Shown here: positions 46,709 through 62,590 of the stretch, one piece after another
Layout: each line of letters opens with the position of its first letter
Numbering within the stretch: the stretch's first letter is position 1
Assembly: GCA_965195285.1 (NCBI GenBank)
Contig: CBDAFS010000031.1
Coordinates: 96,001 to 160,000 of the forward strand
DNA: 64,000 bases
Reading direction: 5' to 3'
From: an uncultured Aminicenantes bacterium
GTDB lineage: Bacteria; Acidobacteriota; Aminicenantia; UBA2199
Translations under genes and position numbers: made by a program
The notes under the pieces: model-generated
Told to the model about the DNA's origin: nothing
Database searches by the model: none
What the model saw: only the letters and a program-made list of their open reading frames with translations

Positions 46709-49700
46709 ATGAATGACTCAATAAAAATTTTTGTCATCATTTTGTTGATTTTATTTCTCAACTTATCTGCTCAACAACTACACATAAAAAATTATACAAC
46801 CGATAATGGTCTCCCATCATCACAAGTATGGTGCAGTTTACAGGACAGTAAAGGTTATATCTGGTTTGGAACATCTAATGGCCTGGTAAAATATAACGGG
46901 AAGAGATTTTTCACATACAAGGTCTCGGACGGACTTGTCAGTAGTGTTGTGCTGGCATTATTGGAAGAAAATGGTAATATCTGGATTGCAACTGATAACG
47001 GGATAAGCTGTTATAATGGTAAAAGTTTTACCAATCATATATCAAATAATGATTTAAATTTTGGAATAGTTTGGTGTATCTCAAAATTTCAGGGTTGTTT
47101 GTGGTTCGGAACAAAAAGACAGGGGTTGTTTAAATTTGACCCTGCCGGGGCTGAAGATAATGTTTTTTCAAATTATTCTGCAAAAGAAGGCTTATACCTT
47201 TCCAGTATTTTTTCCTTGGCTGCGGATGATAACCATTTGTGGATTGCCAATGCCCATACCGGATTATTCATGTATGATGGGAAAAATTTTTTAGATTATA
47301 CAAAAAGTTTTAACCTGGAAAATAAAACATTAACAAACTTATTAATAGTTGACTCTACATTACTGGTAGGAACGGCAAAGAATGGCTTATTCGAATTGGA
47401 TCTTAATAGATTGCCTGATAGAATGGCTAAATCAAAAAAAGTTGCCAACTACTTTCCTACTGATTACATTTATTACTTGGCAGCAAAAAAGGAAAACCTG
47501 TTTTTGGGAACTCGTGGTAGCGGTCTTATTCATTATAAAGACAGACCAATCAGGTATACAACGGCAAACGGTTTAATAAATAATTTCATTTATTCAATAT
47601 TAATAGACAAGGAAAATTCCGTATGGATTACCACCAACAAAGGAATCAGCAAAATTATTTCTCATAAATTTATAAAATATGTAGATAATATGTCGGTATT
47701 ATCTGCTTGTGAATTTAAGAGTGCAATCTGGCTGGGAACGTTTGAAAACGGTTTGATAAGAATAGAAGGTGATAAGATTACTACTTATAACCAAAATGGT
47801 TTCTTTAACCCCAGCCATATATGGGTGCTGGGTGTGTTCGATAACAAGCTGTGGATAGGGGGTATGAGTGGATTATATAGTTATGATGGTAATAAGTTTA
47901 AAAAATACAGAAGAAAAAATGGAATTGCTGAAGAAGGCGTATTAAGCCTCTTACCTACCGTGAAATCTTTGTGGGTTGGAACTGTAAATAAAGTATACAA
48001 ATTCGAACCTCATAAATTAAAAGATAAATTTTTAACTTATGGATCAGAAGACGGTCTAACCAACACCTATTTTCAGACTATCTGTCAGGATGGGAATAAA
48101 ATATGGGTTGGTTCCCCTGGCGGTGCCTTCTGTCTTGACCTAAAAGAGGGGGGGGGATTTAAAAAGTTCTCAAAAAAAGATGGGCTGTCTTCTAATTGTA
48201 TAAATGTGATTTTTAAGGACAACAAGGGAATATTATGGTTCGGAACTTCAAATGGGCTGAATAAATATGAACCAGACAAAGAAAAGAAATTTAGCGTTTA
48301 CACTATTGAAAATGGATTAAGTGACAATCATATAGTATCTATTATTCAAAAAGGTAAATATTTATGGCTCGGGACCAGTAATGGATTAAATAAATTTGAT
48401 GGCGAAAATGTCATAAAAATATTTACCCAGAAGAGTGGCTTAATTGGTAATGAGTCATCATCACCAAACGCAATGTTTCTTGACAGCAATAATCATATCT
48501 GGATCGGTTCTCCAAAAGGGGTAACAAAATATATTCCTGAGAATGATATTCCCAATAAAGTGCCTCCACCGGTATATATTGAGAATTTTTTTATGAATAA
48601 TTCACTGGTTGGTGATGAACAAGATCTTGAGTTTGAATATAAAAAAAACACAGTAAAATTTTCTTATATAGGTCTTTCCTTTCAAAATGAAGACGACGTG
48701 CGGTACAAATACAAATTAGAAGGATACGATAAAGAGTGGTCGGAAGTAACTGAAAAAGATGAAGTTAGATATACCAATTTAAATAACGGGACTTACACTT
48801 TCATGGTATTTGCTCGAAACGGGGATGGTTTTTGGTCAAAAACTCCGGCAGAAATATCTTTTAAAATACTTCCCCCTTTCTGGAAATCCTGGTGGTTTGT
48901 AATTATTGTGGCACTCATGCTGGTTGGGATAGTATATGTTGTTTTTATATTGAAGACCACTCAAATGAGGAATAGGGCAAAAAAGTTAGAGCAAAAAATT
49001 GATGAAAGAACAAAAGTGCTAAAGGACTCAGAAGAAAAATACAGAACATTAATTGAACATTCAAACGATATGATATGGACCCTGGACGAAAAGGGAAATT
49101 TCAGCTACTTTAACAAAAAGTCAGAAGAGATAACAGGCCACCAAATTGAAGAAGGGATCGGAGGGTCATTTGCTCCCATAATTCTTGAAGAAGATTTAGA
49201 AAAGGTTCAGAAGGTTTTTATTGGAGCAATGCAGGGAAAACCTCAACATTATGAAGTAAGAATTTATGACAGTAAAAAAAGAATATTATTTTTATCTGTA
49301 AATACCGCGCCCATTTTTAAAAACGGAAAGGTTATTGGAACTATTAGTTTTGGAAGAGACATAACGAAACAAAAGAAAATGGAGGAAGAACTTCTGAAAG
49401 CAAGCAAACTCGAATCACTCGGGATCCTTGCCGGGGGTATAGCTCACGATTTCAATAACACCCTTACTGCAGTTATTGGTAATTTATCACTGGCAAAATT
49501 ACAAGTAGATTCAAAAGACAAACTCAATAATACGTTGATGAAAATCGAAAAATCCTCACAGCAGGCAAGGGATTTAACTCAGCAATTACTAACTTTTGCC
49601 AGAGGTGGTACTCCGATTAAGAAAAAAATCTTTGTTAATGATTTGCTAAAAGATTCCGCTTCATTTGCCCTGCGAGGTTCCAATGTCAGATGTAAGTTTT

Positions 49701-50524
49701 TGATTTCTGATGATACATGGCCTGTGGAAGTTGATGAAGGACAGATTAGTCAAGTTATAAATAACCTAACTATGAATGCTGACCAGGCCATGCCAGCAGG
49801 AGGAGTATTAAATATATCTGCAGAGAATATAAGCATTGACATAGAAGAATCTCTTCCTATTAAAAAAGGAAACTATGTAAAAATAACCATCAAAGACATA
49901 GGCGCCGGTATACCGGATGACTGTATACAAAAAATATTTGATCCCTATTTCACAACAAAACAAGAGGGAAGCGGACTGGGGTTGACAATTACTTACTCAA
50001 TTATTAAAAAGCATAACGGGTATATTACTGTAAAATCAAAACCGGGAGTTGGAACAACATTTTTTGTTTATCTTCCGGCTTCTGAAGAAAAAGAACCATC
50101 AAAAGAAAAAAAGAAAAAAATACCACTTCAAGTTGGAAAAGGGAAAGTCCTGGTAATGGATGATGAAGAGTCGGTTAGAGATATTGCCGGGGAAATGCTA
50201 AAACATATTGGCTATACGGTGGAGTTTGCAGAAGATGGAAAAGAAGCTTTAAAACTATTCATGAAGGCTAAAGACTCCGGAGCTCCATACGAGGTTATGA
50301 TTTTAGATTTAACGGTAGCCGGTGGGATGGGAGGCAAGGAAACGATTAAGGAACTAAAAAAGATTGATCCCAACGTAAAAGCAATAGTATCCAGCGGTTA
50401 TTCGGATGATCCGGTTCTGTCAAATTTCAGAAAGTATGGTTTTTCAGAAGTAGTCTCAAAGCCATACACTATTCAAGAACTCAGCGCTGTATTGAATAAA
50501 GTTTATCAAAAAAAATCCATATGA
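46709..50524 (+). CDS. Hybrid sensor histidine kinase (propeller/Y_Y_Y - TM - PAS - HisKA - HATPase - REC)
   Basis: QDSKGYIWFGTSNGL blades, [37 protein letters not shown]. Confidence 0.95.
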   Translation: MNDSIKIFVIILLILFLNLSAQQLHIKNYTTDNGLPSSQVWCSLQDSKGYIWFGTSNGLVKYNGKRFFTYKVSDGLVSSVVLALLEENGNIWIATDNGISCYNGKSFTNHISNNDLNFGIVWCISKFQGCLWFGTKRQGLFKFDPAGAEDNVFSNYSAKEGLYLSSIFSLAADDNHLWIANAHTGLFMYDGKNFLDYTKSFNLENKTLTNLLIVDSTLLVGTAKNGLFELDLNRLPDRMAKSKKVANYFPTDYIYYLAAKKENLFLGTRGSGLIHYKDRPIRYTTANGLINNFIYSILIDKENSVWITTNKGISKIISHKFIKYVDNMSVLSACEFKSAIWLGTFENGLIRIEGDKITTYNQNGFFNPSHIWVLGVFDNKLWIGGMSGLYSYDGNKFKKYRRKNGIAEEGVLSLLPTVKSLWVGTVNKVYKFEPHKLKDKFLTYGSEDGLTNTYFQTICQDGNKIWVGSPGGAFCLDLKEGGGFKKFSKKDGLSSNCINVIFKDNKGILWFGTSNGLNKYEPDKEKKFSVYTIENGLSDNHIVSIIQKGKYLWLGTSNGLNKFDGENVIKIFTQKSGLIGNESSSPNAMFLDSNNHIWIGSPKGVTKYIPENDIPNKVPPPVYIENFFMNNSLVGDEQDLEFEYKKNTVKFSYIGLSFQNEDDVRYKYKLEGYDKEWSEVTEKDEVRYTNLNNGTYTFMVFARNGDGFWSKTPAEISFKILPPFWKSWWFVIIVALMLVGIVYVVFILKTTQMRNRAKKLEQKIDERTKVLKDSEEKYRTLIEHSNDMIWTLDEKGNFSYFNKKSEEITGHQIEEGIGGSFAPIILEEDLEKVQKVFIGAMQGKPQHYEVRIYDSKKRILFLSVNTAPIFKNGKVIGTISFGRDITKQKKMEEELLKASKLESLGILAGGIAHDFNNTLTAVIGNLSLAKLQVDSKDKLNNTLMKIEKSSQQARDLTQQLLTFARGGTPIKKKIFVNDLLKDSASFALRGSNVRCKFLISDDTWPVEVDEGQISQVINNLTMNADQAMPAGGVLNISAENISIDIEESLPIKKGNYVKITIKDIGAGIPDDCIQKIFDPYFTTKQEGSGLGLTITYSIIKKHNGYITVKSKPGVGTTFFVYLPASEEKEPSKEKKKKIPLQVGKGKVLVMDDEESVRDIAGEMLKHIGYTVEFAEDGKEALKLFMKAKDSGAPYEVMILDLTVAGGMGGKETIKELKKIDPNVKAIVSSGYSDDPVLSNFRKYGFSEVVSKPYTIQELSAVLNKVYQKKSI

Positions 50525-52725
50525 AAAAACATAACTATTTTTTAATTCCTTTTCTTATTTTAAGTATTAATCTGTTCTCTCAGACCAATATCGATAGTCT
50601 GGAAAAAAGATTATCCCGATTTACCGGGACGAATGAGGAAAAAGTTAATATTTTAAATAAATTGGCAAAAGAGTATCTGAGTACATCACCTGAAAAATCA
50701 ATAGAATACGGACAACAAGCCTTGACATTATCAAAACAATTAAATTTCCTTAAAGGACAAGCAAAATCTTTAGAAAACATTGGAATAGGGCATTCTTATC
50801 TGGGCAATTACAATAAGGCTTTGGAATATCTTACCAAATCATTAACAATAAGTGAAAAAGCAGGATATATAAAAGGGGTTGCCGACACGGCAAAAAATAT
50901 TGGAATTAATTATCGAAAATTAAGCAATTATGATATGTCGTTAGAGTATTATTTAAAATCGTTAAAAAAATATGAACAAATTAAAGATAAAAATGGGGTT
51001 ACCGATGTTTTAAACAACATAGGAATTGTATATGGAAAATTAAGTAATTTTGATAAGGCGTTAGAATATTTTCTTAAATCATTAAAAATGTATGAAGAAA
51101 TGGGTAATAAAAAAGGTATTTCTTTTTCTTCAATTAATATTGGGAATGTCTATTATTTCTCAAAGAAGTATAACAAGGCATTGGATTATTTTCTAAAGTC
51201 CTTGAAGATTTTAAAAGAGCTCGGGAACAAATTCGGTATTGCCAGTTCTATGAGTAATATCGGAGAAATTTATCAACAATTAGGTGATTACGATAGGGCT
51301 TTGGAATATTATTTGAAATCATTAAAAATAGTAAAGGAAATCGGAGATAAGAACATCATTGTCATTAACTTAATCGGTATTGGAAATCTTTACTTAGAAA
51401 AGAAAAAGTATGACAAATCATTACAATATCTTGAGCAAGGGTTGACATTAGCAAATGAAATTGGAGCAAAAGATTTAATTCAGGAAATCTATAAGGTCTT
51501 TTCTGATTTGTATTCGAGAAAATCCAATTACAAAAAGGCTTTAAAATATTATTTGCTTTATTCGGAAGTAAAAGACAGTATTTTTACCAAAGAAAGCAAC
51601 AATAAAATTGCAGAAATGCAGACTAAATATGAGACGGAAAAGAAAGAAAAAGAAATCGAAATATTGCGCAAAGACAAAGAAATTCAAAATTTCGAGATAA
51701 TTCGCCAGAAAAATGTTCGCAACTCATTTATTGCTATTTCGGGATTAATTTTGGTTTTAGTTTTAGTGATTTACAGTCGTTATCATACCAAAAAGAAAGC
51801 AAATAAAATGCTTTCAGAAAAAAATATTCAAATTACCAAGCAAAAAAATCAGCTATCTCAAACTTTAGCCGAATTACAAGAGACTCAGAAAATATTAGTT
51901 GATACTGCACATCGAGCGGGAATGGCCGAGATTGCCAGCGGATTGCTCCATAATATAGGAAATGTACTAAACAGCGTTAAGGTATCCTCTCAACTTATTC
52001 AAGAAAAAATAGAAAAATCAAAGGTTAATGAATTACAAAAGGTGCTTGACTTGATGAAGCAGCACACAACCGATCTCAGTAATTATATGACTTCAGATGA
52101 AAAGGGGAAAATGCTTCCGGCTTATTTAATAAAAGTAGGAAAAATACTGAATGATGAACAAAATAGCCACCTGAATGAACTATCCATTTTAGGCAGTGGT
52201 TTAAATCACATCGAGGAAATTGTAACTGTTCAGCAAAATTATGCAGGTGTCTCAGGTGTTGTGGAATTAATCACTTTATCAAATATAATGGACGATGTTT
52301 TAAAGATGTATCAAGACACTTTTAAAAAACATATGATTGAAGTGGTCAAGCACTATAAGGAGCTTCCCCCTGTTCTGGTTGAGAAAGGAAAATTAATGCA
52401 GGTTTTTGTCAATCTCCTGAAAAACGCGCAGGAATCTCTGGTTTCAAAAGGTGATAAAAAGAAGGTAATTACCATAAACATTTCAGAAGACGAAGAAAGG
52501 AAACATCAGATAGTTGAAATCGTTGATAATGGAACTGGAATAAAAAAAGACCATGTTAAGCAAATATTTTCTTTTGGGTTTACTACTAAAAAAGGCAGTC
52601 AGGGTTTAGGCCTTCATACCGGTGCTTTGACAATGGCTGAGATGGGAGGTAAAATAGTCGCATTCAGTGAGGGAGAAGGACGGGGGGTTACATTTACTGT
52701 GATCTTACCGGAAAACAAACAATAA
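50521..52725 (+). CDS. TPR-repeat membrane sensor histidine kinase
   Basis: About 7 TPRs (ALEYYLKSL...NIG), TM helix, H-box AGMAEIASGLLHNIGNVL, DNGTGI, FGFTTKKGSQGLGL. Confidence 0.92.
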   Translation: MKKHNYFLIPFLILSINLFSQTNIDSLEKRLSRFTGTNEEKVNILNKLAKEYLSTSPEKSIEYGQQALTLSKQLNFLKGQAKSLENIGIGHSYLGNYNKALEYLTKSLTISEKAGYIKGVADTAKNIGINYRKLSNYDMSLEYYLKSLKKYEQIKDKNGVTDVLNNIGIVYGKLSNFDKALEYFLKSLKMYEEMGNKKGISFSSINIGNVYYFSKKYNKALDYFLKSLKILKELGNKFGIASSMSNIGEIYQQLGDYDRALEYYLKSLKIVKEIGDKNIIVINLIGIGNLYLEKKKYDKSLQYLEQGLTLANEIGAKDLIQEIYKVFSDLYSRKSNYKKALKYYLLYSEVKDSIFTKESNNKIAEMQTKYETEKKEKEIEILRKDKEIQNFEIIRQKNVRNSFIAISGLILVLVLVIYSRYHTKKKANKMLSEKNIQITKQKNQLSQTLAELQETQKILVDTAHRAGMAEIASGLLHNIGNVLNSVKVSSQLIQEKIEKSKVNELQKVLDLMKQHTTDLSNYMTSDEKGKMLPAYLIKVGKILNDEQNSHLNELSILGSGLNHIEEIVTVQQNYAGVSGVVELITLSNIMDDVLKMYQDTFKKHMIEVVKHYKELPPVLVEKGKLMQVFVNLLKNAQESLVSKGDKKKVITINISEDEERKHQIVEIVDNGTGIKKDHVKQIFSFGFTTKKGSQGLGLHTGALTMAEMGGKIVAFSEGEGRGVTFTVILPENKQ

Positions 52726-52734
52726 TAAGGAAAA

Positions 52735-55188
52735 ATGGTTATAAATAAAAGTATAAAAAATAAAAGAATATTAATCATCGATGATAATAAACAAATTCAT
52801 CTGGATTTCAAAAAAATATTACTTATTTCCAAAAGGGAGGAAAGTGACCTGGTCAGACTGGAAGAAGCTATACTGGGAAAAGAAGAAAAGAAAGAAGATG
52901 AAACATTCATCATCGATTGTGCATTTCAGGGGGAAGATGGTTTAAAGAAGGTTAAAGAGTCGCTTAAGAAAAACGAACCCTATGCCGTTGTATTTGTGGA
53001 TGTGAGGATGCCGCCGGGTTGGGATGGCATCGAGACAATATCCAGGATCTGGAAAGTGTATCCCGATTTGCAGGTTGTAATCTGTACAGCTTATTCCGAT
53101 TATTCTTGGGAAGAGATAATAAAAAAATTAGGTTATTCAGACAAACTTTTTATTTTAAAGAAGCCTTTTGACAACATAGAAGTCCGGCAACTAACCTATG
53201 CCCTCAGTAAAAAATGGGAACTCACCATGATCGCCAATTTAAATATGTCTGAACTGAATAAAAATATTGAAATGAGAACAAAAGAGTTGAGTGACTCAGA
53301 AGAAAAATACAGAACATTAATTGAGCATTCCAATGATATGATTTGGACTCTGGATAATAAAGGTCACTTTGCTTATATAAATAAAAAATCAGAAAATATA
53401 ACCGGGCATAAGGTTAAAGATGCGATCGGTGAGTCATTTGTACCTTTAATTTTTGAAGAGGATCTACCAAAAGTTGAGAAAGTCTTTAAAAAAACACTGC
53501 AGGGGAAGCCCCAGCATTACGATGTTAGGATTTATGACAGTAAAAAAAGACTGTTATTCTTATCTGTAAACACAGCACCAATTTTTAAAAAAGGAAAAAT
53601 GATAGGAACTGTCAGCTTTGGAAGAGACATAACCGAGCAAAAGCAGGCAGTGGAAAACCTTCGTAAAAATGAAGAAAAATATCGCTTGATAAGCGAAAAT
53701 ACCAGTGATTTAATTATAAAATCTACATTCACATTAAATCCGGTTTTCACCTATGTCAGTAATTCAGTAAAAAGTTTTGGTTATGAACCTGAAGAACTGA
53801 TTGGAACGCCATGTTTTGATATTATTCATCCTGATGATAAAAAAAACCTATTTCCCCTGTTAAAAAAATATATTAAAAAAATGGGAAAAGATTTTTTTGG
53901 TATTAAGGGTTCAGAGATCTTTGAAAAGGTTGAATTCAGGTCGAAAGACAAATCAGGGAACTGGCATTTTATGGAAAGCACGGTAAATTTCATAGACTCT
54001 GAAATATTATATATTGCCAGAGATATTACAGAGCGTAAACAACTCCAGGAAGAAATGTTTAAGGCACAGAAACTCGAATCCATTGGTATTCTTGCCGGAG
54101 GCATAGCTCATGATTTTAATAACATTCTAACCTCAATTATCGGGAATTTATCCCTGGCAAAATTGGAAGTAGATTCAAAAAATAAACTCGATAATATTTT
54201 GACAAAAATTGAAAAATCCTCACAGCAGGCACAGAATTTAACTCAGCAATTACTCACATTTGCCAGAGGAGGAGTACCGTTAAAAAAAGTGATTTCACTG
54301 ATTAACTTAATAAAAAATTCAACACTATTTGCCTTGAGAGGATCCAATGTCAGTGGCGAGTTTTTGATTTCTGACCATCTCTGGCCTGTAGATGTTGATG
54401 AAGGACAGATTAATCAAGTCATAAATAACCTAATTATTAATGCTGACCAGGCAATGCCCGGAGGAGGGGTAATAAAAGTTGGTGCCGAAAATATTGTTAT
54501 TGATGCCACACAAACTATCCTTATTAAAAAAGGAAAATATGTAAAAATAACCATAGAAGATCATGGAATCGGAATTTCAGAAGATCATCTGCAGAAAATA
54601 TTTGATCCCTATTTCACCACAAAACAAAAGGGAAGCGGGCTGGGATTGGCCATAACTTACTCAATTATAAAAAGGCATGACGGGTACATAACTCTTGAGT
54701 CACAAATTGGAGTTGGAACAACATTTCACATTTTCCTTCCGGCATCGAAAAAAAAGTTGTTTGCAAAAGAAGTGCAAAAGAAAAAGTCACTCCAGGTTGG
54801 GAAAGGGAAAGTCCTGGTAATGGATGATGAAGAGTCGGTTAGAGATGTTGCAGGAGAGATGCTAAGACGTATTGGCTGTACTGTTGAGCTTGCAAAGAAT
54901 GGCAGAGAAGCTTCAGAATTCTTCATGGAGGCAAAAAACTCCGGGATTCCATTTGATATTGTAATTTTAGATTTGACTGTTCCTGGTAGCCTGGGAGGCG
55001 AGGAAACAATTAAGGAATTGATTAAGATTGATCCCAAAGCAAAAGTAATAGTTTCCAGCGGTTATTCGGATGATCCGGTCCTGTCAAATTTCAGAAAGTA
55101 TGGTTTTTCAGGAATGATCTCAAAACCATACAGGATTCAGGAACTTAGTAAAGTTATAAATGAAGTCTTAAAGGTTAACAAAGAATGA
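52735..55188 (+). CDS. Cytoplasmic hybrid kinase REC - PAS - PAS - HisKA - HATPase - REC
   Basis: ILIIDDN...FVDVRMPPGWDG...CTAYSDYSW, two PAS domains, [12 protein letters not shown]-terminal REC. Confidence 0.93.
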   Translation: MVINKSIKNKRILIIDDNKQIHLDFKKILLISKREESDLVRLEEAILGKEEKKEDETFIIDCAFQGEDGLKKVKESLKKNEPYAVVFVDVRMPPGWDGIETISRIWKVYPDLQVVICTAYSDYSWEEIIKKLGYSDKLFILKKPFDNIEVRQLTYALSKKWELTMIANLNMSELNKNIEMRTKELSDSEEKYRTLIEHSNDMIWTLDNKGHFAYINKKSENITGHKVKDAIGESFVPLIFEEDLPKVEKVFKKTLQGKPQHYDVRIYDSKKRLLFLSVNTAPIFKKGKMIGTVSFGRDITEQKQAVENLRKNEEKYRLISENTSDLIIKSTFTLNPVFTYVSNSVKSFGYEPEELIGTPCFDIIHPDDKKNLFPLLKKYIKKMGKDFFGIKGSEIFEKVEFRSKDKSGNWHFMESTVNFIDSEILYIARDITERKQLQEEMFKAQKLESIGILAGGIAHDFNNILTSIIGNLSLAKLEVDSKNKLDNILTKIEKSSQQAQNLTQQLLTFARGGVPLKKVISLINLIKNSTLFALRGSNVSGEFLISDHLWPVDVDEGQINQVINNLIINADQAMPGGGVIKVGAENIVIDATQTILIKKGKYVKITIEDHGIGISEDHLQKIFDPYFTTKQKGSGLGLAITYSIIKRHDGYITLESQIGVGTTFHIFLPASKKKLFAKEVQKKKSLQVGKGKVLVMDDEESVRDVAGEMLRRIGCTVELAKNGREASEFFMEAKNSGIPFDIVILDLTVPGSLGGEETIKELIKIDPKAKVIVSSGYSDDPVLSNFRKYGFSGMISKPYRIQELSKVINEVLKVNKE

Positions 55189-59234: not shown

Positions 59235-59263
59235 TTGACAAAAAATTATATTTGGTGTAATTT
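59235..59263 (+). promoter_or_regulatory. Sigma-70 promoter of the riboswitch leader
   Basis: TTGACA-N17-TAATTT places the TSS near 59270, at the 5' end of the RNA motif. Confidence 0.6.
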
Positions 59264-59270
59264 TAAAATT

Positions 59271-59370
59271 CATACTCCGAGCCTTGTTTGCTAACGCATC
59301 CCTGCCAGGCAACTGGGCCGATAGGGCATAAAGGGAAACCTTTATCGCCTGCCGTGTTTGCAAAGGAGGA
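59271..59370 (+). ncRNA. Moco (molybdenum/tungsten cofactor) riboswitch-like motif
   Basis: 5' ACUCCGAGC; GNRA stems CCAG-GCAA-CUGG and AUAAAGG-GAAA-CCUUUAU inside AGGG...GCCU; 3' GCCUGCCGUGUUUGCAAAGGAG versus canonical GCCUCCCGUAUUUGGAAAGG(A/U)G; P1 CUCC/GGAG overlaps the SD. Confidence 0.8.
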
Positions 59371-59374
59371 TTTT

Positions 59375-61309
59375 ATGATTAAGAGAGTTATTTTTTTATT
59401 TTTTTTCTCATTTTTTTCATCCTTATTCCTTTTTCCGGATTCAAAAGATGATGACAAACAACCGGTATCACACCCCTCTTTTACCGAAGAGATTGTGGTT
59501 GAAGGTGAGATTGTATCTAAAACCGCAACGGTATCTACTATAACCGCAAAGGAAATTGAAGAAAAAGGTGTGAAAAATGTTGCTGAAGCTTTGGAATTGA
59601 TACCCGGGGGTTTTGTTCGGGTCGGTGGAAGCGGAGAGGCTTATATCCGCATCCGCGGTTTTCGTCAAAGGGAAATTGCCCTGTTAATTGATGGTATACT
59701 CATTAGTTCGCCTTATAATGGTCAATTGGATTTGAGCAGTATCCCGGTCAATACCATTGACCGTATTGAGTTGGTAAGAGGCGCATCTTCACTGATGTAT
59801 GGGCCCAATACCATGGGTGGGGTAATTAACATTATCACCAAGAAAAGCAGTGGTGCTACCGAGTTTAGTATGACCAATGAATACGGGAGCGGAGATACCG
59901 GCAAGGTGGGGGCTTATCTTCAAGGTGGAATCGGTTCCCTTCGTTATATGGTTGCGGGTAGCTACTTTAATCAGAATGAATATCTGCTTTCAAGGAGTTA
60001 TGAAGAACAAGAAAATCAGGGAAGTGGAGCCAGAGCCAATAGTGACCGGAAAATTTGGAATTCTTCGGTTAGTCTGGGCTGGGATATGGGTAAGAAGAGT
60101 CGGGCAACCTTTCATTTCAGTCACATTGACCAGGTTCGGGGCCTGCCGCATCATGAGAGTGACCCCAGGGCAAAATTTCGACGATATACTGATTGGCAGC
60201 AGGGAATGGTCGATTTTATTTTTGATACCCATTTTGGCAACAGTTCATTAAAGGCAAAAGTTTATTACGAATATTTAAATCACACCCTGGATAACTATGA
60301 TGATATGAGCTATTCAACTCAAGACAATCAGAAATCGACAACAGAAAGCATGAAAAATTATGCCATGGGAGGTGATCTGTTTTACCGCTATCATTTTAAC
60401 CAACGGCTGCTCTTTAAATCGGCACTTCGCTTCCGCTATGACCATAACAAATCCCGCCCCGATTTCTCCGATCCCTGGGGAAGTCATGCATATAATATAT
60501 TTTCAATCCCTCTGGAAATAGAATGGAGAGGAACAGATATACTCCTCATTTCAGGAGGTGCGTCTTTTGATCTGATGAGTTTTGATAAAGGCCAAGATTT
60601 AGGATCCCGCACCACAAATAGCTTTAATCCTCAACTTGCCCTCATGGTATTTCCCATCAAAACCTTGAGTTTTAAAGCCACGGCCTCCCACAAGACCCGT
60701 TTTCCAACAATCAGGGAACTGTTCTCGCTGGATTCGGGAAATCCTGATTTAGAACCCATGACTGCAGATATCTTTGAATTGGGGGCTGAATGGAGAATTA
60801 ACCCGAAATGGTCAGTTTCACTTTTGGGTTTTTACAATAACATCAATGATCTGATTGGTCGCTCCAGCAAAGACGATCCCTATGATAATATTGACAAAGC
60901 CGTTTTCAAGGGATTTGAAGCCGGCATGGAATGGGATAACCAAAATTGGATTATACTCAAACTTTTTTATACCTATCTTGAGGCTATTGATAAATCACCA
61001 ACAAGTTCAGGGTATATTGAACATAGACCGCGGCATAAGATCGATACTTCCATAGCGATTAAGTTGCCGTCTCAGTTCTACATAAGCGCAGATATCGGTT
61101 ATGTGTCATCACAGCTCTATTATAGTGATGAAGAAGAAGAACATCTGGATCCTTTTACCCTTATTGATTTGTGCCTGACTAAAAAAGTAGGGCGCTTCAT
61201 GGAGTTTTTTGTGACGATTCGTAATCTATTCGATGTAATTTATTATGAAAGTGAAGGATATCCCAGAGAAGGGAGAATAATCCTTGGTGGCTTTCGTTTA
61301 ACCCTATAA
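59375..61309 (+). CDS. TonB-dependent receptor
   Basis: Signal peptide, TonB box EEIVV, plug IRIRGF...LLIDG...IDRIELVRGASSLMYG..MGGVINIIT, GNPDLEP, RNLFD...GR...LTL; true ATG is 59375. Confidence 0.93.
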   Translation: MIKRVIFLFFFSFFSSLFLFPDSKDDDKQPVSHPSFTEEIVVEGEIVSKTATVSTITAKEIEEKGVKNVAEALELIPGGFVRVGGSGEAYIRIRGFRQREIALLIDGILISSPYNGQLDLSSIPVNTIDRIELVRGASSLMYGPNTMGGVINIITKKSSGATEFSMTNEYGSGDTGKVGAYLQGGIGSLRYMVAGSYFNQNEYLLSRSYEEQENQGSGARANSDRKIWNSSVSLGWDMGKKSRATFHFSHIDQVRGLPHHESDPRAKFRRYTDWQQGMVDFIFDTHFGNSSLKAKVYYEYLNHTLDNYDDMSYSTQDNQKSTTESMKNYAMGGDLFYRYHFNQRLLFKSALRFRYDHNKSRPDFSDPWGSHAYNIFSIPLEIEWRGTDILLISGGASFDLMSFDKGQDLGSRTTNSFNPQLALMVFPIKTLSFKATASHKTRFPTIRELFSLDSGNPDLEPMTADIFELGAEWRINPKWSVSLLGFYNNINDLIGRSSKDDPYDNIDKAVFKGFEAGMEWDNQNWIILKLFYTYLEAIDKSPTSSGYIEHRPRHKIDTSIAIKLPSQFYISADIGYVSSQLYYSDEEEEHLDPFTLIDLCLTKKVGRFMEFFVTIRNLFDVIYYESEGYPREGRIILGGFRLTL

Positions 61310-61321
61310 GGAGAAATTCAT

Positions 61322-62590
61322 ATGTCATTAAAAATTTTGGTTATGTTGTCTTTGTTATTGTTTCAAAACATTTCTGCAGCGGAAAAGGAATTATTGGTAC
61401 AAAACGCCCGCTTTTATTCAGCCAATACAGTTGATATTAACCGGGATGGTATAGTTGAAGTTATTGCTGCCGGTCAATTGAATCATGGGAATGAAAAAAA
61501 CCATTCGGCCTATATTGCTGTTTTCAAAAGAGATAACGGTTCATTTAAAAAAGTGTCCGAGTTATCCTTCCGCATCTCTCATAAAGGGGCAAATATTTCT
61601 ACAAGAATCCGCAACATCCAGATCATTCCGGAGAAAAGCACGGGGAGTTTATTTTTTGTTACCTCCGGTCGGGCAGGCGAGGATGAAGGCGGAATCGGTT
61701 TTATCCAGTATGGTAAACTTCAACAAGATCAGATTTCCATGGACGGGTATCATAAATTTGTTGATACCCAGGCAAAATATACCCATGGTTATCCCCTGGC
61801 TATTGGAGACCTGAACGGTGACCGGAAGCCTGAAATTGTTTATGGAGGGTTTGTGGGAACTGAAAAAGGAGATCGAGCCGATATTCATGTCTTTAGATTC
61901 GAAAAGGGTAAACTTAAAGAAGATAAAATTGCTTTTTCTTCTCTCAAAATTCCCCTGCGGGTAAATGCCATCGTGATTGGTGATCTGGATGGTGACAGTA
62001 AAAATGATATTGTTATCGCAGGCAGAACTTTAAAACCAAACGGCAAGGAGTATGCTTCCTTTGCCTGGGATTCTCAGGGTAAAACCTACCATCATATATT
62101 CAATGATGGGTTTCCCAGTCGATTAAGAACTCTGCTGATAATTGATATTGATCAGGATGGAAAAAATGAATTGGTTACCGGAGGAAGACAAGAATTCGGT
62201 AAAATCTGGGTGGCGGACCTTCAAATCTGGAATATCAATGATAATGATGCTAACTTATCCGATCGTTTCTTCTGGAGCTCTGGTCATCAAATAAGATTGC
62301 GGGCAATCTCGCCAATAAAAAACCAGCCCAACCATTTCAGGGTCGCCGGAAGAGTTGAGTATAGAAGAAAAGATGGAAGTGTTGGATGGTCCGGTTTTAT
62401 CAGGTCTTTTGGAAAAGAGAATGGCTCTTTTCAGCCGGTTTCTGGTTTAGAGTTGTTTGATTTTGGCCATGAAACTCGTATCCGGGATCTTCATCTGGCC
62501 GAAAGTGGTGATACGGTTCTTGCCGGTTTTGGTAAAACCAAAGCAGGACAAAACTTCGGATTCATCCGTTTCATAACTGCCAACAAGTAA
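61322..62590 (+). CDS. Secreted FG-GAP/VCBS-repeat beta-propeller protein
   Basis: Signal peptide; DINRDG, GDLNGDRKPEIV, GDLDGDSKNDIV, DIDQDGKNELV Ca-loop repeats; 12 nt after the receptor stop with AGGAG RBS. Confidence 0.85.
   Translation: MSLKILVMLSLLLFQNISAAEKELLVQNARFYSANTVDINRDGIVEVIAAGQLNHGNEKNHSAYIAVFKRDNGSFKKVSELSFRISHKGANISTRIRNIQIIPEKSTGSLFFVTSGRAGEDEGGIGFIQYGKLQQDQISMDGYHKFVDTQAKYTHGYPLAIGDLNGDRKPEIVYGGFVGTEKGDRADIHVFRFEKGKLKEDKIAFSSLKIPLRVNAIVIGDLDGDSKNDIVIAGRTLKPNGKEYASFAWDSQGKTYHHIFNDGFPSRLRTLLIIDIDQDGKNELVTGGRQEFGKIWVADLQIWNINDNDANLSDRFFWSSGHQIRLRAISPIKNQPNHFRVAGRVEYRRKDGSVGWSGFIRSFGKENGSFQPVSGLELFDFGHETRIRDLHLAESGDTVLAGFGKTKAGQNFGFIRFITANK

Follow-up and report, generated by a model that had tools for sequence, protein, structure and literature searches.

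A 64-kb stretch of the genome of an uncultured Aminicenantes bacterium, referred to here as the window, carries a two-gene operon in which a TonB-dependent receptor (TBDR1) and a secreted FG-GAP beta-propeller follow a riboswitch of the family that responds to the molybdenum or tungsten cofactor (Moco/Tuco; RF01055). Positions below are window coordinates unless a contig or locus is named. TBDR1 belongs to a receptor clade that is linked to this RNA throughout the bacterial class, within regulons centred on tungsten. We regard the operon as a real, conserved and uncharacterised variant of riboswitch-controlled TonB-dependent uptake, and the regulatory reading is strong. It probably serves cofactor supply by TonB-energised uptake across the outer membrane.

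The riboswitch lies at 59263-59382 on the plus strand. In the Rfam scan it matches RF01055, the Moco RNA motif, over model positions 1-135 at 64.5 bits, above the gathering score of 36 (E 3.2e-13), which bears out the Moco RNA landmarks picked out by eye in the initial annotation. No other Rfam family reaches its threshold in the 64-kb window, including the cobalamin and thiamine pyrophosphate (TPP) riboswitches that had been named as possible better fits. The alignment shows P1, P2, P4 and P5 together with the conserved junctions, whose landmarks CUCCGAGCC, AGGGC, GCCU and AAAGGAG are present, and the junction consensus letters CUCCGAG, AGGG, GCCU and AAAGGAG are all seen against the model. 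P4 ends in a GNRA-type loop, GGAAAC, and P5 reads GCC-GUGUUUG-C, followed by AAAGGAG. The columns of the P3 hairpin are deleted, as they are in all three RF01055 copies of this genome, and these RNAs therefore belong to the P3-less subclass, proposed to sense Tuco in the accessible text of Regulski et al. 2008 (PMC2408646). A strict P3-less junction pattern matches 69 of 80 aptamers of the class, and most of the other 11 have, as judged by eye, the same short junction with variant letters.

The Shine-Dalgarno (SD) sequence and the AUG of the receptor gene both lie inside P1. The 5′ strand of P1 has the core CUCC at 59275-59278 (+), and the 3′ strand is itself the SD, GGAGG, at 59365-59369 (+), 5 nucleotides (nt) 5′ of the ATG at 59375. 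This pairing and its coverage of the SD had been placed correctly at the outset, as the Rfam alignment and the minimum-free-energy fold agree. The fold also pairs the AUG with 59270-59274; its z-score is -2.15, with 3 of 200 shuffled sequences equally stable. Since the leader scan lists no terminator-like site between aptamer and start codon, the design appears to be translational. Transcription may start from a tentative promoter-like site read from the sequence at 59235-59263 (+), TTGACA and TAATTT separated by 17 nt. Its -35 element (59235-59240) is perfect, with six of six consensus positions, and its -10 element agrees with TATAAT at only three of six; the site is missing from the list of a consensus promoter scan, so that this promoter is weaker than first claimed.

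The platform is common to the receptor leaders of the class. Among the 26 leaders initially assigned to receptors, 22 have an in-frame start 5-9 nt 3′ of the P1 GGAG, and in the remaining four an ATG or TTG lies a few bases from GGAG in another frame or beside a frameshift. Many wtpA leaders instead carry a spacer of 33-65 nt. The translational OFF design first proposed from a single leader is thus a conserved feature of the receptor genes. Binding of the cofactor would allow P1 to form, burying the SD and the start codon and leaving the receptor untranslated; when cofactor is short, the receptor and a periplasmic propeller would be made with the rest of the regulon. If cofactor binding does close P1 and block translation in this way, the operon would therefore be part of a cofactor-starvation response.

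The linkage between receptor and riboswitch was followed across 61 genomes, comprising the source genome (62 contigs, 3.28 Mb, 42% GC, 94.9% complete) and 60 relatives, of which 36 belong to its family and 24 to its class. RF01055 has 81 matches in 44 of these genomes, 80 of them above the cut-off. About 5 kb 3′ of every match was taken for classification, and the downstream open reading frames (ORFs) were compared by BLASTP with the proteins of the source genome and clustered, with Pfam run on the representatives of the clusters. The first gene behind the riboswitch is a receptor of the TBDR1 clade in 27 of the 81 cases, including a receptor of 641 amino acids (aa; G006:C32), a WtpA-like gene in 25, a TupA-like gene in nine and MoeA in five. 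A protein without Pfam match and with a predicted sulfite-oxidase (SUOX) fold, discussed below as the usual partner of these receptors, stands there alone in three cases, an NAD-type aldehyde dehydrogenase in three and AOR in three; other genes make up five cases and a contig end one. Clade receptors are thus the commonest first gene behind RF01055 in the class. Of the 61 genomes, 26 have at least one riboswitch-linked receptor, and in the same set of genomes the same riboswitch class also precedes wtpABC, tupABC, moa/moe and AOR genes, the company that the initial annotation had proposed to look for.

In the three aldehyde dehydrogenase cases, the gene is first behind the riboswitch and 5′ of the receptor (L144, G012:C13:8217-21096; L186, G027:C52; L175, G036:C15). 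This riboswitch-linked enzyme may be a tungsten-independent backup for AOR when cofactor is short. Genome G012 holds three riboswitches within 8 kb.

Searching in the reverse direction, with TBDR1 against the 61 genomes, returns 30 matches at E <= 1e-44, including two from the source genome. Of these close receptors, 26 are preceded by RF01055, immediately or, for one of them, at the operon head, so that the suspected co-occurrence of receptor homologues with Moco RNAs is found in nearly the whole set. The other four comprise two receptors cut by contig ends, one with 912 nt of riboswitch-free upstream sequence and one without a riboswitch. Of 30 weaker receptor matches, three are fragments of the same clade and the remaining 27 have no riboswitch nearby. 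A maximum-likelihood tree of 45 receptors was built by quick search, with SH-aLRT as the sole support measure and three further receptors of the source genome serving as outgroup. In it, TBDR1 falls in a fully supported clade of seven, six of which are riboswitch-linked and one of which lacks upstream sequence. The paralogous receptor of the same genome belongs to a clade of 18, all riboswitch-linked. The G006 entry of this tree, with a branch length of 5.3, is invalid and is disregarded. A profile search of the genome contigs with the receptor alignment and generic plug motifs listed matches that all have <=32% identity, and these were used as an outgroup set.

Beyond the close receptors, the 12 best distant loci contain one Moco riboswitch and no cobalamin riboswitch when compared with all of Rfam, and control of the homologues by B12, which had been raised as a counter-case, is not seen among them. 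A riboswitch sequence hidden Markov model (HMM) run over 85 loci adds three more cases. Several homologues without riboswitch still adjoin the no-Pfam partner protein or a WtpA-like gene. At a locus of an unclassified metagenome-assembled genome (MAG; L027, 4905-7794), the riboswitch lies about 1 kb upstream of the receptor with a 253-aa ORF without Pfam match between them; this receptor is a distant family member on a long branch of the tree. Two Geobacter MAG loci (L029, 5878-11502; L030, 5788-12580) show a receptor, one or two Peripla_BP_2 genes, the riboswitch, XdhC and ModA, an arrangement in which the receptor is near the riboswitch and not under its control.

TBDR1 itself is encoded at 59375-61309 (+) and has 644 aa. 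Pfam assigns it a Plug domain (PF07715, 91.7 bits) and a TonB-dependent receptor barrel (PF00593, 110.4 bits); a TonB-box-like EEIVVEG at residues 38-44 and a signal peptide were identified by eye only. The propeller gene (61322-62590, +; 422 aa) starts 12 nt after the receptor stop, and with its FG-GAP domains confirmed, the gene order described in the initial annotation stands. Since the flanking genes are on the opposite strand or unrelated (SPFH, OmpA-like, NYN/LOTUS, MscS and a hybrid sensor kinase block), receptor and propeller form a stand-alone two-gene operon, which by Pfam holds these two genes and no ABC components. The source genome contains four TonB_C loci and six Plug-domain genes. 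Named homologues of TBDR1 and of the propeller come from Candidatus Aminicenantes, and TBDR1 orthologues in the protein database range from 44 to 95% identity. Elsewhere in the window, a Reg_prop/Y_Y_Y hybrid kinase, a TPR-HATPase protein and a PAS hybrid kinase stand in a row at 46709-55188 (+), followed by an SBP_bac_5 gene; these sensor proteins appear unrelated to the receptor operon.

The receptor scores below the cut-off of every NCBIfam equivalog model. BtuB is the nearest curated model, far below its cut-off (TIGR01779, 158 against 599.7 bits; NF007926, 115 against 836), and the siderophore receptor model TIGR01783 gives 146.1 against 223.5 bits. Because all curated models are so far from their cut-offs and the window holds no cobalamin riboswitch, identities as BtuB or as a siderophore receptor are rejected. 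A related proposal is that the receptor is a siderophore-type importer which supplies iron for the Fe-S clusters of tungstoenzymes and simply happens to share the Tuco regulon. Two operons annotated as iron ABC transporters do lie behind Tuco riboswitches in Eubacterium limosum, in the accessible text of PMC11725836, and models of siderophore and haem receptors give TBDR1 weak scores. None of these comes near its cut-off, however, and neither kind of partner, pterin-fold protein or propeller, is a siderophore-binding protein. An OFF switch would also curtail the import of iron at the very time when cofactor is abundant and the apoenzymes require clusters. Iron co-supply is therefore improbable in our view.

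The propeller partner has FG-GAP_3 (PF13517, 54.4 against 26.9 bits) and FG-GAP (PF01839, 53.1 against 22.1 bits) domains, and by eye its N-terminus shows a hydrophobic leader without a lipobox cysteine, taken as a signal peptide. Its AlphaFold2 model is all-beta and confident (pLDDT 91.7, pTM 0.90). Foldseek returns propellers only, mostly generic WD40-type; the best match is the propeller domain of CylK with a query-normalised TM-score of 0.68. These generic propellers, like the generic FG-GAP clusters of the protein atlas, do not inform on function. The alignment of 20 propeller sequences has 13 invariant arginines, which recur as R-x-R where the strand before each DxDxDG loop begins, and as G-G/A-R in the strand that follows. 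These strands are presumably the innermost ones, as in the integrin topology that we assume here, which makes a cationic central channel plausible.

The match to CylK, an enzyme, could hint that the operon is not for uptake at all: its products might, for instance, be two enzymes acting at the surface or in the periplasm, or might serve export or signalling with an indirect need for the cofactor. The riboswitch class also precedes cofactor-using enzymes, with AOR in three of the 81 cases. Receptors with a Plug and a 22-strand barrel are importers, however, the other Foldseek matches are generic propellers, and Pfam, NCBIfam and the protein atlas detect no catalytic family in the proteins of the window operon. 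We consider such a role quite improbable.

Within the receptor family, the propeller is confined to one small branch. A search of 5.8 billion clustered proteins gives 22 specific homologues (E <= 4e-55), and the 60 relatives contain one clear orthologue. The propeller profile has no match in 400 other genomes sampled from the phylum, and the protein is therefore not a general part of the receptor system. A metagenome scan with a nine-sequence propeller alignment found three loci. Wherever the DNA is visible (the window, L200, L201 and G014), a clade receptor lies directly 5′ of the propeller, the receptor of G014 being split over two contigs, and metagenome contig L200 repeats the full architecture of riboswitch, receptor (78% identity) and propeller (73%). 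Six further receptor-propeller pairs in the protein database come from contigs of equal length and are probably same-contig pairs as well. The initial proposal of receptor and propeller as one system thus holds for the link of the receptor to the riboswitch, and its propeller half applies only to this small branch.

The protein that usually accompanies receptors of this family is another one, a periplasmic protein encoded outside the window behind the paralogous receptor of the source genome (338 aa; L005 8059-9075 (-), equivalent to G000:C24:26058-27074). It has no useful Pfam or PDB sequence match. Its alignment of 19 sequences shows no invariant cysteine and conserves the motifs FSWGE, DGYR and DFFSDR; like the propeller, it is rich in conserved arginines. 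The model (pLDDT 85.8) predicts a tandem pterin-binding fold of the sulfite oxidase/PruR type: all 35 Foldseek matches at E < 1e-3 are sulfite oxidase or dehydrogenase, the Moco domain of nitrate reductase, YedY or PruR, with TM-scores of 0.55-0.61 normalised to PruR. In genomes G019 and G029, TBDR1 orthologues are themselves followed by this protein type and not by a propeller. A fusion of a Ser/Thr protein kinase with an Lcl_C domain (L005 6121-7971 (-), equivalent to G000:C24:24120-25970) follows the second receptor operon, and it does so in each of the three genomes of the genus that show this locus.

These partners raise the question of whether the cargo is a pterin. The receptor might salvage molybdopterin, Moco/Tuco or a precursor such as cyclic pyranopterin monophosphate (cPMP) from other cells in anoxic sediment, and the periplasmic partner, whether propeller or SUOX/PruR-fold protein, would bind this cargo as BtuF binds B12. 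The pterin-binding fold predicted for the usual partner (19 sequences) and the place of that protein behind TBDR1 orthologues in G019 and G029 are consistent with this, as is the standing of BtuB as the closest curated receptor model, far below its cut-off. A cargo of cofactor size would also suit a TonB-dependent transporter.

The genome content adds a further point. MoaE (PF02391) is not found in the source genome at 94.9% completeness, where a clade-specific HMM gives a best E of 0.88, nor in three genomes of the same genus; counted over the whole class set, 49 of the 61 genomes, which are incomplete, yield no MoaE. In genomes without MoaE, either molybdopterin synthase is very divergent or molybdopterin is not made. 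An inverse relation between MoaE and the receptor is not seen, however: MoaE is present in six of 25 receptor genomes and in six of the other 36; its absence does not track the receptor. Several features argue against salvage in addition. The genes moaA, moaC, moeA and mog are kept under the same riboswitch class, neither receptor operon contains an inner-membrane pterin transporter, and Moco is very labile. The window operon, moreover, carries a propeller instead of the pterin-fold protein. On balance, we consider pterin or cofactor salvage a tentative alternative.

The rest of the regulon in the source genome points to tungsten. A covariance-model search finds three RF01055 matches there. 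The strongest (77.3 bits) precedes a binding protein, a permease, a TOBE ATPase, MoeA, MoaA, MoaC, a MOSC protein and Mog; the binding protein is WtpA (TIGR03730, 297.7 bits with a cut-off of 242.75), and the ATPase most resembles WtpC. The third copy (57.2 bits) precedes the second receptor, of 642 aa and 27% identical to TBDR1, and then the 338-aa protein without Pfam match. With four AOR-family and four DMSO-reductase-family loci, the organism looks, from its gene content, like a tungsten-using anaerobe. During cofactor shortage, the receptor operon of the window would accordingly be expressed with the wtpABC-moeA-moaA-moaC-MOSC-mog operon and the second receptor operon. The cargo would be tungsten, as tungstate, thiotungstate or a tungsten chelate; the arginine-rich propeller would receive it in the periplasm, and WtpABC would then take the inner-membrane step.

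Tungsten is favoured as cargo because the rest of the regulon consists of tungsten uptake and metal insertion, because cofactor biosynthesis genes are present and because both partner proteins are rich in conserved arginines. That the receptor operons lack an inner-membrane transporter fits a cargo which WtpABC or TupABC can take over. In TupA-like operons of the class, genes for a phosphate-type porin, a permease and an ATPase often come next. In one relative, tupA and the permease gene are separated by a Porin_O_P gene of the phosphate-selective-porin type (L143 3192-4172 (-)), and relatives have four more loci of this kind; this porin hints that passage of tungstate through the outer membrane is limiting in the lineage.

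Several considerations weigh against this account. The cargo is deduced from regulation alone, and free oxyanions are small for a TonB-dependent transporter. The porin in the riboswitch-controlled tupA operons of relatives would already provide an oxyanion route. The predicted SUOX/YedY/PruR fold of the usual partner points instead to a pterin cargo, and the failure to find MoaE in the source genome and its three genus mates favours pterin import. The arginines would line a channel solely on the integrin topology that we presume, and 12 Desulfobacterota/Geobacter receptors in the tree carry no riboswitch. That tungsten is the cargo, received by the propeller and passed to WtpABC, is thus a possibility that we hold at a little under an even chance, and the explanation as a whole, from cofactor sensing to the inner-membrane step, has about an even chance of being right.

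To our knowledge, the passage of tungsten, molybdenum or their cofactor across the outer membrane of Gram-negative bacteria is essentially unstudied, and inner-membrane ABC systems are the only ones characterised. ModABC, WtpABC and TupABC share with the present operon a role in molybdenum or tungsten supply, and WtpABC belongs to the same regulon; the window operon differs in having no ABC components and a TonB-dependent receptor. The case of IcmP illustrates that passage of molybdate through the outer membrane can be assisted, and no secreted ModA or link to type VI secretion is seen here. The receptor btuB of E. coli is under a cobalamin riboswitch that exerts translational control through the ribosome-binding site. 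With btuB and the TonB receptors under TPP riboswitches, the present operon shares a cofactor riboswitch in the receptor leader, an arrangement in which the riboswitch class predicts the class of cargo. It differs from btuB in its RF01055 sensor, in a receptor that fails the BtuB model and in a partner that is a propeller, not BtuF. TPP-riboswitch-controlled receptors include BT2390 of Bacteroides and that of Caldithrix abyssi (PMC5317091).

On the RNA side, E. coli moaABCDE (PMC2408646) and the Tuco regulon of E. limosum (PMC11725836) use the same family, with the ribosome-binding site in or next to P1 according to the accessible parts of these sources. The P3-less type found here is that of tungsten users. 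The E. limosum regulon, as given in that part of the report, includes ABC transporters, WOR1 and FocA in an organism without an outer membrane, unlike the present one. On the protein side, the partner of the paralogous receptor shares its predicted fold with PruR and sulfite-oxidase-fold domains (PDB 7kom, 7kp2, 7rkb, 2ca3, 1xdy), and differs from these in its tandem, Cys-less make-up, in having no Pfam match and in lying outside the window.

The initial annotation knew of no characterised system of this composition, and our literature search, which left most subscription journals aside, agrees in finding no characterised pairing of a Moco/Tuco riboswitch with a TonB receptor. The main text of Regulski et al. 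2008 (PMC2408646) contains neither "TonB" nor "outer membrane". The only statement in print that we found is a one-sentence remark in a genome paper by Aklujkar et al. 2012 (PMC3543383), which connects channels of the TonB type to molybdopterin riboswitches and proposes a role in transporting metal. It notes the same association as described here and, in the accessible text, gives no family definition, partner proteins or test. It is conceivable, if rather doubtful, that these receptors are the first outer-membrane gate dedicated to tungsten, molybdenum or ready-made pterin cofactor, with the two alternative partners as new classes of protein that bind the oxyanion or the cofactor in the periplasm. 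In such a gate, the FG and GAP positions of the propeller blades would have been turned into R-x-R and G-G/A-R.

Our analysis identifies a coherent receptor family that a known sensor RNA marks as part of the response to tungsten-cofactor starvation in a class of uncultured sediment anaerobes, where the riboswitch is found with the receptor as often as with the tungstate ABC transporter. This assignment would mend the routine annotation of such genes, evident in source names, as cobalamin or iron receptors. The receptor and propeller of the window offer a concrete, clonable gene pair for the energised uptake of tungsten, molybdenum or Moco, and the operon suggests that uncultured anaerobes take up tungsten or its cofactor by a route not yet characterised.

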